IMG/VR virus record: IMGVR_UViG_2695420540_000010
DNA length: 11,545 nt
Direction: 5' to 3' (one strand)
From: a virus
Lineage: Duplodnaviria > Heunggongvirae > Uroviricota > Caudoviricetes
The notes beneath the pieces are model-generated. The model was not told where the DNA came from. It saw only the letters and a list, made by a program, of their open reading frames with translations, and did not search any database. Of this stretch, positions 419 through 11,545 are shown in pieces; the first letter of the stretch is position 1, and each line of letters opens with the position of its first letter. The position numbers and the translations under genes are program-made.

Positions 419-754
419 ATGAAGTGGATTGTGATTGATACAGTTATCCAGCCATCATGCGGAATATCTTTTTCAGTCATATGGAGTAAAATAAAATTAA
501 TAATCTGGTATCAATCGGATGCTTTCTTACCTCCTGAAAGTATATTTACACTGACTCACACAGGCATCATGCTCAATAACAAAGTGCTACCTGTAACCAT
601 TTACAACGTAGTACCATTCAATAAAACATTCTGGAATTCAATCAAAAATAGCCAGGAATGCCCTACAAATACAGATAACGTATTGAATGAATGCTTTAAT
701 AACCGTTGCACTCTGCAAATATGTCCTTATGGACTAAAACAACAAAGTCCATAA
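419..754 (+). CDS. Hypothetical 111-aa protein in an AT-rich island, opposite in orientation to the rest of the region; possible moron/cargo gene
   Basis: ATG start with AGGA about 8 nt upstream (acaaggaaactaaATG). Local GC roughly 32-38% by hand count of two lines, against about 50% elsewhere. Five Cys residues. No family recognised. Confidence 0.4.
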
Positions 755-1528: not shown

Positions 1529-1665
1529 TAGACCGTATAACAAACACTCAATCAATACTTAACAGAACTTTTATTTTTGACAAACATAAAATATTTTCAA
1601 CAATATCCTGAGCCAGGTATATTTCAGTATAAGGCTCTGCCGGAAGGAATCTGGAAGAATGAATA

Positions 1666-1742
1666 TGGCGCGCTGTACTGGATTCGAACCAGTGACCGAT
1701 TGCTTAGAAGGCAATTGCTCTGTCCGGCTGAGCTAACAACGC
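1666..1742 (-). tRNA. argO: tRNA-Arg (anticodon UCU), second copy, beside a scaffold gap
   Basis: Reverse complement folds as a 77-nt cloverleaf: acceptor GCGTTGT, D-stem GCTC/GAGC, anticodon stem ATTGC/GCAAT with loop CTTCTAA, T-arm ACTGG-TTCGAAT-CCAGT, encoded CCA. Differs from the copy at 2668..2744 by one base (1673), giving a G-U pair at 4:69. Confidence 0.8.
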
Positions 1743-1885
1743 TGAATACCGATNNNNNNNNNNNNNNNNNNNNNNNNNNNNNNNNNNNNNNNNNNNNNNN
1801 NNNNNNNNNNNNNNNNNNNNNNNNNNNNNNNNNNNNNNNNNGCCAGCTGAAATATTACTTCACGTTTTATTGTTTATTCCTTGCC

Positions 1886-2957: not shown

Positions 2958-4016
2958 TCATCCGTTCTGGCTGACTAAATCCTGTACTTCCCGAACCGTC
3001 TGCTCAAAACGTTCAGTCTCCAGCTCAACGCCAATTGCACGACGCCCGAGCGCCAGTGCCGCTTTCACTGTCGAACCCAACCCCATGAAAAAATCTGCAA
3101 TCAGGTCACCCGGACGACTGCTAGCGCTGATTATCTGCTGCAGCATTTCTGCCGGTTTTTCGCACGGATGTTTCCCGGGATAGAACTGCACCGGTTTATG
3201 CGTCCACACATCGGTATACGGCACCTGCACCGTCACGCCAAAATACCGCCGCAGATGTTTATATTCACTCAGCAGCTCCGCATACTGCCGGTTCAGTGAG
3301 GTATACGTATCCACCAGCTGGTGGTGGAGCTTTTCCAGTTCACCACGCCGATGCTTCTCTTCTGCCACCCGGGCAAACAGCGCCTGTAATTTCAGATAAT
3401 CGCTTTCATTCGGCAACTGCCACTGACCGGCACTGAACCAGTGCGACACCATGTTTTTCTTTCCTGTGGCATCTGCAATCTGTTTTGCCGTTATCCCCAG
3501 GGCAGCTCGCGCATCACGAAAGTAAGAAATCAGCGGGGCCATCACATGCTGTTTCAGTGCACTGCCCTTCGCCGCATACCCGGCATCTTTCGGACGATAC
3601 GGCCCCTGATAATGTTCCGCGAACAGAATGCGCTCTGTGGCGGGGAAATACGCCCGCAGGCTTTCCTTGTTGCATCCGTTCCAGCGTCCGGACGGCTTCG
3701 CCCAGATAATATGGTTCAGCACACTGAAGCGTTCACGCATCATGATTTCGATATCAGATGCCAGGCGATGACCACAGAACAGGTAAAGACTTCCGGCAGG
3801 TTTCAGCACCCGCCAGAACTGCGCCAGACACTGGTCCAGCCACTTCAGGTAATCATCGTCGCCCTTCCACTGGTTATCCCAGCCCTCAGGCTTCACTTTA
3901 AAGTACGGCGGGTCCGTGACTATCAGGTCAACAGAATTTTCGGGTAACGACCGGATAAATTCCAGGCAGTCGGCGTTGATTAACTCACAACTGGATATTT
4001 TTACAGTATTAAGCAT
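2958..4016 (-). CDS. DNA methyltransferase, beta-class amino-methyltransferase (N6-adenine or N4-cytosine), apparently orphan
   Basis: 352 aa. Motif IV DPPY near the N-terminus (IVTDPPYF) and the SAM-binding FxGxG motif I near the C-terminus (DFFMGLGST), the circular-permuted order of beta-class enzymes. No restriction endonuclease candidate nearby. Confidence 0.8.
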   Translation of the reverse strand: MLNTVKISSCELINADCLEFIRSLPENSVDLIVTDPPYFKVKPEGWDNQWKGDDDYLKWLDQCLAQFWRVLKPAGSLYLFCGHRLASDIEIMMRERFSVLNHIIWAKPSGRWNGCNKESLRAYFPATERILFAEHYQGPYRPKDAGYAAKGSALKQHVMAPLISYFRDARAALGITAKQIADATGKKNMVSHWFSAGQWQLPNESDYLKLQALFARVAEEKHRRGELEKLHHQLVDTYTSLNRQYAELLSEYKHLRRYFGVTVQVPYTDVWTHKPVQFYPGKHPCEKPAEMLQQIISASSRPGDLIADFFMGLGSTVKAALALGRRAIGVELETERFEQTVREVQDLVSQNG

Positions 4017-5314: not shown

Positions 5315-5754
5315 ATCAGTGATACTCAGCGCATCTTTCGACGTTGAGGCCGATGCATCAGTCAGGCCGGGGGATTTTGGGGAGTAGTATTTCGGTAAAT
5401 CTTCNNNNNNNNNNNNNNNNNNNNNNNNNNNNNNNNNNNNNNNNNNNNNNNNNNNNNNNNNNNNNNNNNNNNNNNNNNNNNNNNNNNNNNNNNNNNNNNN
5501 NNNNNNNNNNNNNNNNNNNNNNNATGCGCATCACTACCGGTTTTATTTCTGCCGGAAGTTTTCTCAACGCCGCCACACGATCGCACCGACTGAGTGNNNN
5601 NNNNNNNNNNNNNNNNNNNNNNNNNNNNNNNNNNNNNNNNNNNNNNNNNNNNNNNNNNNNNNNNNNNNNNNNNNNNNNNNNNNNNNNNNNNNNNNNNNNN
5701 NNNNNNNNNNNNNNNNNNNNNNNNNNNNNNNNNNNNNNNNNNNNNNNNNNNNNN

Positions 5755-6097
5755 GGTAAATCTTCACCCCCAGACGTCCACCAGATACTGGCTGACCACG
5801 AACGATATTGATTTCATCAAACTGCTCATCGTCCATTAACACTCCCGCATGTGTCAGTGCATCCAGTGGTGCTTTCAGGATATTGTCCAGGTCACGACGG
5901 CGCTTATCCGGTGGCTCTGCAATAATCTTTATCGCCAGTCTTCCGGACAGGCTTAATTTCAGTCGCTGCTGACGGACAATAAGCGCCACATCCCGGCGAT
6001 AACGCTCACCGGCTTTTGATACAAAATATGTGTTGTCACGACGTCGCCAGTAAGTATTCACCGTCGGCGGATAAGGTAAAATAAACTCATGGCGCAT
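5755..6097 (-). CDS. rusA: Holliday-junction resolvase RusA (3' end lost in an N-run)
   Basis: N-terminus MRHEFILPYPPTVNTYWRRR and the motif PPDKRRRDLDN match the RusA family (E. coli RusA has PDRRRRDLDN). Start overlaps the upstream stop as TGATG. Confidence 0.75.
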
Positions 6098-6688: not shown

Positions 6689-8245
<1,557 letters not shown>

Positions 8246-8260
8246 NNNNNNNNNNNNNNN

Positions 8261-8462
8261 GCTTATCCGGTGGTTCTGCAATAATTTTTATTGCCAACCT
8301 TCCGGACAGGCTTAATTTCAGCCGCTGCTGGCGAACAATAAGCGCCACTGCCCGGCGATAACGCTCCCCGGCTTTTGATACAAAATATGTGCTGCCACGA
8401 CGACGCCAGTAAGTGTTCACCGTCGGCGGGTAAGGTAAAACAAATTCTATGCGCTCGGTCAT
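8261..8462 (-). pseudogene. rusA: Second rusA copy, N-terminal 67 codons only, cut off by the N-run next to the IS21 element
   Basis: MTERIEFVLPYPPTVNTYWRRRGSTYFVSKAGERYRR...IIAEPPDK. Roughly 90% nucleotide identity to 5886-6097 by eye. Its ATG directly follows the upstream stop (TAAATG). Confidence 0.6.
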
Positions 8463-9521
8463 TTATGCTTTCCACTTCAGAACACCCGAATTTCTCGCGT
8501 GCATTAAAAAACGAATCAGCAACAACAGCTGACTGCCGTGTTTCTCTTCAAAATCTTTTACTCCGGCATGTAGTTCGTTACGGCATTTACGGCATAACGG
8601 AATAACAAACAAATCATCAGCCTTTGTTCCCATCCCTCCCAGTCCATGACCAATGATGTGATGCGGATCATCTGCCTGATTGCCACACGTCATGCATTTC
8701 TGCGTTTTTACCCAGCGCGTGTATACAGGCATCTCTTCCCGTTGTGATTTCTGGCGCTGGAGATACTGAGCCGGTGACTCCGGATCAACGGCAATGCTGA
8801 CCACCGTCTTTTCCTGTGGTGGGTTCTGTTGCTGGTGGACGTGAGGCAGTAACGCAATATTTTTTGTGCGCTGCTTCAGTATGCTGGTGGCTGTCTGCTC
8901 TCCCGGTATGATGTCGCTTTCACTGTACACAGAGCGAATTTTTTCCGCACGCAACCCCAGCGAACGACGTAATACCGCTTCCGGTAGCGCGTCCGCCACC
9001 TGATTGCGGACCGCCCACCAGGATAATTCAGCCAGAGATAATTCACGCTCCTGCGTACCGCTTATTGCGTGACCGATGACGTCAATCATCCATGCTGACA
9101 GGTTTTGATGAGCAAGTTGCTCGAGTGATTCGGATGTCTGGTCACGCAGCTGGTTGTCGCAGTGCCAGCACAACACCATTGCGCCGGTACCATAACGGTG
9201 AATGACGGTTTCGCTGTGATGATAATCGCCGTGTGGCCACTGGCAGGATTTAATATGGCGCAACAGCCAGTCAGACAATGCACCAGCACCACCAGCAGCA
9301 CGAATCACCCGTGCGTTACTGAAAAACGGCAGCAATGTTTTGTCTTCCACCAGCGGCTGGCGAGCGGCAGGAACGACCCCGGACGGCAGATTACGCATGC
9401 TTTTTGGTTCCGGCTCCACCAGTATTCTGCCGTTATGGAATGCTGACATTGATTCACGGCCTGGCTTAACGATAACCAGACCGAGTTCCGGTACCAGAAC
9501 AGGTCGAAGTAATACCCGCAC
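8463..9521 (-). CDS. Phage nin-region protein with a C-terminal HNH endonuclease motif (possibly YdfU/DUF968-like)
   Basis: 352 aa from a GTG with GGAGG 4 nt upstream (alternative ATG 24 codons in). C-terminus CMTCGNQADDPHHIIGH...LCRKCRNELH fits CxxC...D.HH...CxxC.N..H. The DUF968 assignment is from memory. Confidence 0.6.
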   Translation of the reverse strand: MRVLLRPVLVPELGLVIVKPGRESMSAFHNGRILVEPEPKSMRNLPSGVVPAARQPLVEDKTLLPFFSNARVIRAAGGAGALSDWLLRHIKSCQWPHGDYHHSETVIHRYGTGAMVLCWHCDNQLRDQTSESLEQLAHQNLSAWMIDVIGHAISGTQERELSLAELSWWAVRNQVADALPEAVLRRSLGLRAEKIRSVYSESDIIPGEQTATSILKQRTKNIALLPHVHQQQNPPQEKTVVSIAVDPESPAQYLQRQKSQREEMPVYTRWVKTQKCMTCGNQADDPHHIIGHGLGGMGTKADDLFVIPLCRKCRNELHAGVKDFEEKHGSQLLLLIRFLMHARNSGVLKWKA

Positions 9522-9522
9522 A

Positions 9523-9801
9523 TTACCTCCAGATCCGTTGCTGGAATGTGCGGGACGGACGCGTTGGCCGTTCGGAGTAAGGGAGCCTGACGGAGATTAT
9601 CCAGTGACGGTAGTCGAGGCTAAGGGCTTTTTTAACCTCGCATCCGCGCCTGCGGTAACACTGAATGAGCCATTCGGCCTGTTCTTCAGTGCATGGGGGA
9701 TGCTGGTACCAATCAGATTTAAATGCGTGAGAGCGCCGCCCGTGCCTGCTGGCAAAGACGGCTGAATTATCAGAATTGTGTAGTCTGGAATTTTGCGCCA
9801 T
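9523..9801 (-). CDS. Hypothetical 92-aa protein; may instead be the out-of-frame 5' part of the downstream HNH gene
   Basis: ATG with GGAG 7 nt upstream. Stop lies 1 nt before the GTG of the next gene, in a different frame. Confidence 0.4.
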   Translation of the reverse strand: MAQNSRLHNSDNSAVFASRHGRRSHAFKSDWYQHPPCTEEQAEWLIQCYRRRGCEVKKALSLDYRHWIISVRLPYSERPTRPSRTFQQRIWR

Positions 9802-9867
9802 CGGCTTTCTCCGGTGGCACAGTGTTACTCAACAGGGGTTCAGCCCTGCGCTGAATTGTAGATGAAT

Positions 9868-10128
9868 TCACTCATCTTCAAAAGCAGAAAAACCAGCCTT
9901 AATCCCAGCTTCTTTCAGAGACGGCAACGATGTGACAAATTCATTTGCACGCGAAATAAAACCATCCGTCACAAGCCCATCCACAAAATGAATTAACGCA
10001 GCTCCACTCTTCCTTTGTTGAGACTGTAAACATTTAATACGGCAGTGGCTGACAATAGCGCCATTCTCAACGCGCACAGTATAGAGGCCATCTTCACTAA
10101 AAATTTCACGTAATTCTTCGATTTTCAT
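9868..10128 (-). CDS. Hypothetical 86-aa protein
   Basis: ATG with GGAAGGA 8 nt upstream (the track ORF starts one codon earlier at a TTG). No family recognised. Confidence 0.5.
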   Translation of the reverse strand: MKIEELREIFSEDGLYTVRVENGAIVSHCRIKCLQSQQRKSGAALIHFVDGLVTDGFISRANEFVTSLPSLKEAGIKAGFSAFEDE

Positions 10129-10248
10129 CAACAGAATCCTTCCAGATAAATAGCACTCCCCTGTTCGGGGTCCATCCCTCTTCTCCCTGCGCGCTACTTA
10201 AGTATTTTTGATTCTATTCCGGCACCATCTAAAACTTCAAACGCGTTG

Positions 10249-10278
10249 AAAATAAAAACAAAAACCCGCCGAAGCGGG
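10249..10278 (-). terminator. Intrinsic terminator downstream of hok
   Basis: Minus strand reads cccgc-ttcg-gcggg followed by tttttgttttt. Confidence 0.6.
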
Positions 10279-10348
10279 TTAAGTGTGGGTGCATTGAGGA
10301 TGCCTGACCCATCAGAGGTGGCGAGGGATTTCTCCCCCGCCTGGTCTC

Positions 10349-10504
10349 TTACTCCTCAGGTTCGTAAGCTGTGAAGACAGCGACCTCCGTCTGGCCGGTT
10401 CGAATTCGTACCTCGCAGAGGTCTTTCCTCGTTACCAGTGCCGTCACTATGACGGTTAAACAGATGACGATCAGGGCGATTAACATCGCCTTTTGCTGCT
10501 TCAT
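10349..10504 (-). CDS. hokD: Hok/Gef-family type I toxin (HokD/RelF-like, 51 aa); the in-frame 70-aa extension to 10561 is a Mok-like frame
   Basis: MKQQKAMLIALIVICLTVIVTALVTRKDLCEVRIRTGQTEVAVFTAYEPEE matches the Hok family, and HokD as I recall it. AAGGAG lies 9 nt upstream. An upstream in-frame ATG at 10561 has its own GAGG. Confidence 0.85.
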   Translation of the reverse strand: MKQQKAMLIALIVICLTVIVTALVTRKDLCEVRIRTGQTEVAVFTAYEPEE

Positions 10505-10795
10505 AGCCTGCTTCTCCTTGCCTTTCGGCACGTAAGAGGCTAACCTAGATTTGCCGTTCATAGATTGAGCCTCAGATTAATGTTAAGCGTCTTGCCGGAC
10601 GCGTAATGTTAACTGGGGCTTTTCTCTATCTGCCTTTTGGTGTTCATGCCTGAGACAGATAGCCTCAAGCACCCGCTGCAATTCTACTTAACTCTCCTTT
10701 TCCCGCAAACCGTTTTTATCCCCAGCGGCAAATCGAATACACCACCAGCGCCACCGCCATCGCAATTCCTACCGTTGTTAATGCTTCAGGCCAGG

Positions 10796-11140
10796 TCATC
10801 GTAAAATATCCTCCACGCTTATCAGTCCGTTCCGCTCCAGATAACTCATCGCCTTATCCGGTAATTTGCAGTCTGGCTTCGCTTTCCTCAGTTGCCAGGT
10901 TAACTGCTTTACCAGCATGGTTAACTCATCGACCAGACGCTGATATCCCACTGGTTTGTATTCATGCAATTTACCGGCTGGCTCTGCTGCCAGCGATACC
11001 AGTGCGATTTCCAGAACAGCAATATCCATCTTATATGTGCGGATGATGTCATGGTCGATTGTGCCCGGTATGCACAGTCTCTGTGCTTCAATAGTCTCCT
11101 CTGCGTGAGCTATTAACTGCTCTCTGGTAAAAGTCGTCAT
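10796..11140 (-). CDS. Hypothetical 114-aa protein, paralogous in its N-terminal part to the upstream 55-aa ORF
   Basis: ATG overlaps the upstream stop (ATGA). Shares MTT.T.E and IAL.SL.AEP....EY with the 55-aa ORF. Confidence 0.55.
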
Positions 11141-11304
11141 GCCGTAGCCCCTTCTTGATATTTTTCAAACCAGAACACAACCGGCTCTGCTTCCAGCGAT
11201 GCCAGCGCAATCCGTGCCAGTTCCATTTGTTCACCACGGGTAAGCCCGTTTTCAAGCGGGTTTTTAATGAACAATTCAATACGTTCTTTGGTAATAGTGG
11301 TCAT
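11137..11304 (-). CDS. Hypothetical 55-aa protein (below the ORF-track length cutoff)
   Basis: Translated by hand: [61 protein letters not shown] lies 7 nt upstream of the ATG. Stop overlaps the next gene's start. Confidence 0.55.
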
Positions 11305-11314
11305 GTGTTACTCC

Positions 11315-11545
11315 TTAACCCGCAGTGCTTTCAACTGATGAGGGGAACAAAATCTTTTCATCAAACCCTGCATTCATATCATGAACAGCAACACACCAAT
11401 CCATCGACGAACGATTATCAAGAGCCTCCATGATTTCATCCATGCGGCGTAGGTCATACAGGTAAATGCTTTTATCGCCAATGGTGTAAAAGCCAATTTT
11501 TTTCGGTGATGGATGAGGTGTACTGGCAATAGCGGACACTACCAT
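11315..11545 (-). CDS. Hypothetical 76-aa protein whose start codon is the last three bases of the window
   Basis: ATG to TAA open frame, followed 10 nt later by the next gene with a strong SD. No family recognised. Confidence 0.5.
   Translation of the reverse strand: MVVSAIASTPHPSPKKIGFYTIGDKSIYLYDLRRMDEIMEALDNRSSMDWCVAVHDMNAGFDEKILFPSSVESTAG

Follow-up and report, generated by a model that had tools for sequence, protein, structure and literature searches.

The viral sequence analysed here, IMG/VR record IMGVR_UViG_2695420540_000010 (Caudoviricetes), was studied as a window of 11,545 nucleotides (nt), to which all coordinates refer. Its minus strand carries an open reading frame (ORF) for a 51-amino-acid (aa) Hok toxin, an overlapping mok frame, and the leader and terminator of a hok mRNA, while the plus strand carries a predicted gene for the Sok antisense RNA with its promoter. 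We consider it very probable that a complete type I toxin-antitoxin module, hok/mok/sok of the hokD type, occupies positions 10253-10709 in the nin region of a Qin/lambda-like prophage. The system is already known and of a textbook type. The elements, their alternative pairings, the covariation, the strand asymmetry and the homology to validated loci were derived from the sequence. The features are listed below, where nt n of the hok mRNA corresponds to window position 10675-n.

10349..10504, minus strand: hok toxin ORF, 51 aa plus stop codon (Pfam HOK_GEF; identity to K-12 HokD/RelF)
10349..10561, minus strand: mok frame, 70 aa, in frame with hok (ORF list); mok AUG at 10561
10570..10573, minus strand: mok Shine-Dalgarno (SD) sequence GAGG, read from the sequence, 8 nt 5' of the mok AUG
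10514..10519, minus strand: hok SD sequence AAGGAG, read from the sequence; hok AUG at 10504
10681..10709, minus strand: putative hok promoter, -10 TAGAAT (10686..10681) and weak -35 TTGCGG or TTTGCG (10709..10703), placed by spacing
10253..10674, minus strand: predicted full-length hok mRNA, about 420 nt, +1 at G10674 (RF01794 model position 1; 3' end of the terminator)
10499..10674, minus strand: hok leader (Rfam match to RF01794)
10663..10674, minus strand: tac (translational activator), GGGUGCUUGAGG, mRNA nt 1-12, paired with fbi in the full-length minimum free energy (MFE) structure
10613..10620, minus strand: ucb (anti-SD of mok), AGCCCCAG, nt 55-62, paired with the mok SD region in the full-length fold
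10536..10541, minus strand: dcb (downstream complementary box), AGCCUC, nt 134-139, paired with GAGGCU (nt 102-107) in the open conformation
10320..10341, minus strand: 3' stem-loop GGCGGGGGA/UCCCUCGCC, helix 17 of the structure, presumed 3' end of the truncated mRNA
10287..10299, minus strand: fbi (fold-back inhibitory element), CCUCAAUGCACCC, in duplex with tac
10253..10280, minus strand: intrinsic terminator (terminator scan), a seven-pair GC-rich stem AACCCGCTTCGGCGGGTT (10280..10263) followed by TTTGTTTTTA
10553..10623, plus strand: Sok antisense RNA, 71 nt (sokW-like), placed by homology to annotated sokW/sokC; 3' end at 10629 if sokC-like
10518..10546, plus strand: sok promoter, -35 TTGCCT (10518-10523), 17-nt spacer and -10 TAACCT (10541-10546), matching the sokW sequence

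The 70-aa ORF 10561..10349 contains an internal in-frame ATG at 10504, from which the 51-aa Hok is read, as a first-pass annotation of this DNA had described. The peptide matched Pfam family HOK_GEF (PF01848) with E=3e-23 and 81.6 bits, against a cut-off of 22. Its identity is 100% to K-12 HokD/RelF, 92% to 933W HokW, 82% to HokC and 39% to R1 Hok. The likeness to MokC/HokC that the same annotation noted was borne out, since the annotated mokC/hokC and mokW/hokW are in-frame pairs with a common stop codon, like mok/hok in the window; in hokB each frame has its own stop. The GAGG motif of the mok SD is identical in R1 (PMC9841398). The CAAGG of the hok SD is invariant in the 18 loci aligned, which range from Escherichia to Photorhabdus, and the hok SD is paired in the full-length fold. 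Overexpression of the coding sequences of the studied Hok homologs leads to lysis, except for HokB and R483 PndA. The codon for Tyr47 of Hok is UAC (10364-10366, minus strand, with the A at 10365), followed by G, and aligns with a Cys of HokA and HokB; the resulting UACG motif is kept in nearly all aligned loci (as TTACGAA). A-to-I editing at this codon has been described for hokD mRNA in the literature, and it would give the Cys of the disulfide.

The Rfam family RF01794, named "sok antitoxin", matched positions 10674..10499 over the full model (1-157) with 112.4 bits against a gathering score of 59 and with E=1.7e-25, which is far above chance expectation. This match lies on the minus strand, that is, the strand of hok. 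The consensus of the model starts with GGGUGCUUGAGG, the 5' end of the hok mRNA, and ends at the hok AUG. In K-12 hokC and 933W hokW the model also matches the toxin strand, and the curated sokC and sokW are antisense to it and nested within the match. The RF01794 match thus marks the hok mRNA leader and not Sok, so that the Rfam search suggested in the first-pass annotation gave a positive result, but one for the hok-sense leader. Since the curated sok features lie opposite to the match, Sok was sought antisense within it. Annotation pipelines that use RF01794 could give "sok" the wrong strand and a length about three times the true one. Matches to the model were recorded at 10499-10674 (minus strand) in the window, at 1626-1800 (plus strand) in sequence L001 and at 602-754 (minus strand) in sequence L002.

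The first base of both annotated sok RNAs, sokW (71 nt) and sokC (59 nt), is a G located 9 nt inside mok, which aligns with G10553 on the plus strand of the window. By this homology Sok is placed at 10553-10623, over the mok start and close to the interval 10540-10620 where the first-pass annotation had expected it. The 3' end falls at 10623 (GGGGCUUUU) if it is sokW-like, or at 10629 (…CUCUAU) if it is sokC-like. The predicted fold of this RNA (-32.9 kcal/mol, z = -5.5) has a single-stranded 5' tail of 14 nt, a long hairpin and the U-rich tail GGGGCUUUU. In all of the 18 loci the Sok sense is more stable than its hok-sense complement, with a mean gap of 9.7 kcal/mol. The hairpin contains 2-7 G-U pairs in the Sok sense, which become C-A mismatches on the other strand, versus 0-1 in the hok sense across these loci. 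This asymmetry is evidence that the structured RNA is carried by the plus strand.

The -10 hexamer TAACCT sits seven nt 5' of G10553. From 5' of the -35 hexamer to just beyond the -10, the window matches the upstream region of 933W sokW, and all aligned loci share the TTG of the -35 as well as the T, A and final T of the -10. In the study of hokW-sokW, the "pro-less" primer YO-421 swaps a TAACCTA stretch, whereupon antitoxin activity was lost, and sokW supplied in trans partly restored the growth of the "pro-less" construct (PMC8621323). The hexamers TTGCCT-17-TAACCT had already been guessed in the first-pass annotation and they are the ones that match the sokW promoter; the positions given there (10508-10536) are 10 nt too low, the true ones being 10518-10546.

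On the toxin strand, the putative -10 TAGAAT is spaced from the GGGTGC 5' end exactly as are TATAAT in hokC and TAAAAT in EC332. With the transcript starting at G10674, the leader up to the hok AUG has 170 nt (10674 to 10505). The leader of about 290 bp proposed earlier is therefore too long: positions 10716-10799 belong to a separate 27-aa ORF, and the hok promoter would lie at about 10681-10709. At the other end, the 3' terminator proposed in the same annotation was recovered as an intrinsic terminator (10280..10263 plus T-run), and it is the sole convincing one in the region 9400-11545. The dcb of the window overlaps the first base of the sok -10, an overlap likewise described for R1 (PMC9841398). 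In the 3' stem-loop, 90% of the cells of the alignment are paired and three pairs are changed on both sides; by analogy with R1 (PMC9841398), we infer that this stem-loop protects the end of the processed hok mRNA.

In the model established for plasmid R1, tac/fbi pairing closes the full-length mRNA and ucb acts as an anti-SD of mok, while the truncated RNA forms tac/ucb and mok-SD/dcb, and the nascent RNA forms a metastable hairpin (PMC9841398). The predicted folds of the window agree with this model. The 420-nt hok mRNA has an MFE of -169.2 kcal/mol (z = -6.8 against shuffles), with nt 1-12 paired with fbi and ucb paired with the mok SD. The tac/fbi duplex comprises 12 pairs at -21.1 kcal/mol; dinucleotide shuffling of the 3' region gave a mean of -12.6 (sd 2.0) and equalled the observed value in 2 of 2000 cases. 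The pairs between ucb and the mok SD are 55-58 with 104-107 and 60-62 with 100-102, interrupted by a C59/A103 mismatch; the R1 mutation A106G closes the equivalent C-A mismatch in the ucb/SD stem (PMC9841398). In a nascent 50-mer, tac pairs with nt 19-29 as a metastable hairpin, and in nascent RNAs of 62 and 140 nt the tac/ucb and mok-SD/dcb pairings are formed. Under constrained folding, imposing the tac/ucb pairing raises the energy of the full-length RNA by 11.2 kcal/mol, versus 1.4 kcal/mol for an RNA truncated to 358 nt. Within the folding model, this energy shift on removal of the 3' end is the expected logic of the switch.

The conservation of these pairings was evaluated in 54 loci from species-representative genomes of Escherichia, Shigella, Kluyvera, Pseudocitrobacter, Pantoea, Photorhabdus and Erwinia, collected with a 4-sequence Hok alignment as query, to which K-12 hokB, hokC and hokE, 933W and an intact R1-type plasmid copy (L064) were added. 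About 35 loci with an intact leader have a box complementary to tac (fbi) 45-70 nt after the stop codon. The box is absent in the loci known to be broken, namely K-12 hokC and hokE, which are next to the insertion sequence (IS) IS186, and hokD of the K-12 type. The tac/fbi duplex shows compensatory changes, GGGUGC/GCACCC versus GGGCGC/GCGCCC and GAGG/CCUC versus GAGA/UCUC, which correspond to covariation of U4-A to C4-G and of G-C to A-U.

When the MFE structure of the window was scored on the 18-locus alignment, standard pairs were found in 84.3% of cells versus 39-45% in slid controls, and 42 pairs were changed on both sides versus 17-21 in these controls; neither value was reached by any of 500 shuffles. 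The structure scored was derived from one of the aligned sequences, yet the size of the gap and the double changes argue for a real conservation of the leader pairing. For the 3' half of tac/fbi the per-locus duplex table is the cleaner test, as a bulge that differs by 1 nt and a misaligned R1 3' end obscure the column-wise counts. The conserved leader pairing anticipated in the first-pass annotation is thus present, as tac/fbi, ucb/mok-SD, tac/ucb and mok-SD/dcb, and covaries across genera. All defining sequence features of a hok/mok/sok type I toxin-antitoxin locus that can be tested in silico are found here. Two randomly picked R1-type hok loci are broken by IS elements in the leader, one by IS150 (L007, 1-390) and the other by ISKpn28 (L008, 1-429; Klebsiella), echoing the IS-inactivated chromosomal hok loci of K-12.

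The closest relative that has been studied experimentally is hokW/mokW/sokW of the Stx2 phage 933W and the Sakai prophage Sp5 (AF125520), with 91.8% DNA identity over the locus. Both loci reside in lambdoid prophages and share the in-frame mok, the sok promoter sequence, and the Sok hairpin and terminator, including a 19-nt extension that hokC does not have. They differ in four C-terminal residues of Hok, in mok codons 2-5 and in their position, as the window locus lies in the nin region whereas hokW is near the end of the 933W record. HokW is toxic and is neutralised by the 71-nt Sok, an effect that depends in part on RNase III and Hfq (Takada et al. 2021, PMC8621323). During RecA-dependent prophage induction Sok vanishes, HokW is made before the endolysin and phage release approximately doubles (PMC8621323).

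The toxin is identical to that of hokD (relF) in the Qin prophage of K-12, with which the window also shares the 3' UTR, fbi, the terminator and similar downstream neighbours (DUF968/ydfU, Q). The homology, however, begins at 10518, at the hok SD; in K-12 relBE replaces everything upstream, with relE ending 71 nt upstream, and tac, ucb, the mok start and sok are missing, while the window has the complete form. This complete form was found in 1299 of 5426 complete E. coli genomes (at least 80% coverage of a 651-nt query), and several coliphage records match the locus at 97%. A recent survey reported that hok is enriched in prophages. Records with 96-100% identity to HokD or 97% identity to the locus also occur under an Actinobacillus phage (PP818812.1), a Veillonella parvula metagenome-assembled genome, Acinetobacter idrijaensis, Xanthomonas pisi and "Candidatus Scatousia" (L019, L029, L035, L062). 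Several of these are very short contigs, and such off-taxon records are most likely contamination by, or mis-binning of, E. coli or coliphage sequences.

Two other characterised systems complete the comparison. The chromosomal hokC (gef)/mokC/sokC resembles the window in its in-frame mok, its Sok start 9 nt inside mok, its tac sequence, its leader architecture and its RF01794 match. It differs in having a Hok of 82% identity, a Sok hairpin shorter by 19 nt and a -35 that reads TTGACC, and its K-12 copy is broken downstream by IS186. The hok/mok/sok (parB) system of plasmid R1 has the same order of tac/fbi, ucb/SD-mok and dcb, with Sok covering the mok start and fbi followed by a terminator. 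Its Hok is only 39% identical, its mok and hok are read in different frames (the ATGs are 58 nt apart), and it is plasmid-borne with established post-segregational killing.

From these relatives a mechanism can be proposed, in which the start sites, 3' processing, Sok/RNase III action, mok-hok coupling, toxicity and trigger are taken from R1 and hokW. A weak constitutive promoter would make the hok mRNA of about 420 nt, which the end-pairing of tac and fbi would lock shut while ucb holds the mok SD. Slow 3' trimming would take off fbi, and the truncated RNA would refold to form tac/ucb and mok-SD/dcb. Sok, which is abundant and unstable, would bind the refolded RNA over nt 52-122, spanning the mok start, and RNase III would then cleave this RNA. 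Once Sok is gone, mok would be translated and would drive translation of hok, and the 51-aa Hok would insert in the inner membrane and kill or lyse the cell. Sok would drop on loss of the element, on a stop of transcription or, as shown for sokW, on prophage induction. The expression and instability of Sok and the neutralisation of Hok via RNase III have been shown for sokW (PMC8621323) and R1 (PMC9841398).

Several points weigh against the module being complete and working as proposed. The hok +1, the ends of Sok and the 3' processing site were placed by homology only. A consensus promoter scan called neither the hok nor the sok promoter, the latter matching the consensus at 7 of 12 positions, and a consensus terminator scan missed the Sok terminator. 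The promoters were missed because their hexamers score under the threshold, in the case of hok because the -35 is weak, and the Sok terminator because its stem has internal mismatches; identification of these elements therefore rests on homology and covariation. In the folding model, the MFE structure of the truncated 358-nt RNA is still closed, the open form being 1.4 kcal/mol higher. HokD carries a Tyr at the position of the disulfide Cys of HokA and HokB, and given the reported editing its toxicity may depend on A-to-I conversion. Finally, intact chromosomal hokA and hokC were reported to show neither post-segregational killing nor activation by rifampicin, so that a complete sequence is no proof of activity.

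The last two points favour the best surviving alternative, in which the locus is intact but physiologically silent, with Hok never released in normal life, and would be selfish or neutral cargo rather than a killer or a lysis timer. In view of the inactive intact chromosomal hok loci and of Tyr47, this silent state is kept as an unlikely alternative that still deserves some weight. It is opposed by hokW-sokW, which is 92% identical, has the same sok promoter sequence and is toxic, neutralised by Sok, activated by induction and able to double phage release. It is also opposed by the retention of all regulatory pairings with compensatory changes, and by the occurrence of the exact mok-start/Sok-tail variant in at least 120 IMG/VR contigs, which argues for a maintained function.

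A decayed remnant, in which a toxin ORF persists without working regulation as in K-12 hokD (relF), hokC and hokE, is very improbable. Such an origin would be plausible at first sight, as the hok loci of K-12 are commonly broken: homology to K-12 hokD extends only from 10518, with relE 71 nt upstream, and K-12 hokC and hokE are followed by IS186 and have no fbi partner. In the window, however, tac, ucb, the mok SD and AUG, dcb, fbi, the terminator and the promoter, body and terminator of sok are all present and pair as in intact loci, with no IS or frameshift within 10253-10709; this full set of elements refutes the remnant at the sequence level. The family name "sok antitoxin" and the strand of the RF01794 match, taken at face value, would make the antitoxin a 176-nt minus-strand RNA co-directional with hok, which is almost certainly wrong, given that the model runs from the hok mRNA 5' end GGGUGCUUGAGG to the hok AUG, that the curated sokC (K-12) and sokW (933W) oppose its strand and that the G-U asymmetry shows a hairpin optimised on the plus strand. 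The complete hok/mok/sok module is thus the explanation that we retain.

The genes around the module are co-oriented with hok and correspond to a lambdoid nin region, with DUF968, RusA, antiterminator Q, four tRNAs and three STnc100 RNAs. Their order is that of a Qin-like prophage of E. coli EC332, where RefSeq names the toxin hokD. The whole 1.7-kb neighbourhood, searched at a coverage of at least 80%, was found in none of the complete E. coli genomes. On the minus strand, the STnc100 RNAs (780-969, 1915-2124 and 2402-2591; 124-161 bits) are interleaved with the tRNAs (1669-1742, 2671-2744, 2761-2834 and 2845-2917) downstream of the Q gene. Stx-type or lambdoid prophages usually have such a stretch close to the late promoter. 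An ORF at 2958-4016 encodes a DNA methylase.

Further on, a remnant of the IS21 family lies within 6689-8462 (minus strand), with an IstB ATPase at 6689-7489 (E=2.5e-90) and, at 7486-8127, part of a transposase that carries a Mu-transposase C-terminal domain. A truncated RusA-like ORF (8124-8462, covering profile positions 1-63 only) adjoins this remnant, and a fuller RusA ORF is found at 5564-6097. The IS21 remnant seems to be an insertion into the nin region.

Immediately past the hok terminator, a promoter-like TTGAAG-18-TAGAAT (9/12 consensus matches; 10211-10240, minus strand) lies upstream of an 87-aa ORF (9868-10131) with no Pfam hit; the same site occurs after hokD in the Qin prophage of K-12, ahead of rem. 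On the other side of the module, the hydrophobic 27-aa ORF (10716-10799, minus strand) overlaps a 114-aa ORF (10796-11140) at ATGA, and its stop lies 41 nt before the hok +1. It had no Pfam hit and is unannotated in the two RefSeq records inspected. A similar ORF precedes 933W hokW and EC332 hokD and none of the other hok loci. Its inclusion as a part of the module was rejected, as it was found only in the window, 933W and EC332.

The main difference between the window and its relatives lies in mok codons 2-5, which correspond to the 5' tail of Sok and read AACGGCAAATCT in the window versus CTGAACACATGT in hokW and hokC. Among 17 loci of the long type, this 12-nt block is the most variable part of the leader, with nearly invariant flanks. 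The exact 28-mer of mok start and Sok tail was found in at least 120 viral contigs of IMG/VR. In R1, Sok recognises its target through its single-stranded 5' end, and therefore the block probably sets the specificity of the antitoxin. A rule by which hok loci sharing a genome would always have distinct Sok tails was considered and rejected, since the hokW-type and hokC-type tails are identical and both types occur in one Shigella genome.

The location and the variable tail suggest a further proposal, which we regard as doubtful: that the module is wired to induction by transcriptional interference and that the Sok tail insulates it from co-resident hok loci. Once the prophage is induced, antiterminated transcription begun at the early promoter would read through and meet the sok promoter head-on, so that Sok would be switched off. 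This rests on the nin-region position of hok, which has the orientation of the early-right genes, and on the scan of the window (9400-11545), which found no convincing terminator upstream of hok. The hypervariable 12-nt 5' tail of Sok would in turn keep the module apart from co-resident hok loci. If true, interference by read-through would explain the unexplained RecA-dependent loss of Sok reported for hokW.

This prophage carries a complete, regulated hokD and not the truncated relF version of K-12, which matters little beyond annotation. Sok, mok and the leader elements now have exact coordinates, whereas neither of the two RefSeq records inspected lists any of them. As hokW shows, a prophage hok/sok module can influence the timing of lysis and the yield of phage, and the locus is therefore relevant to induction studies of this phage.

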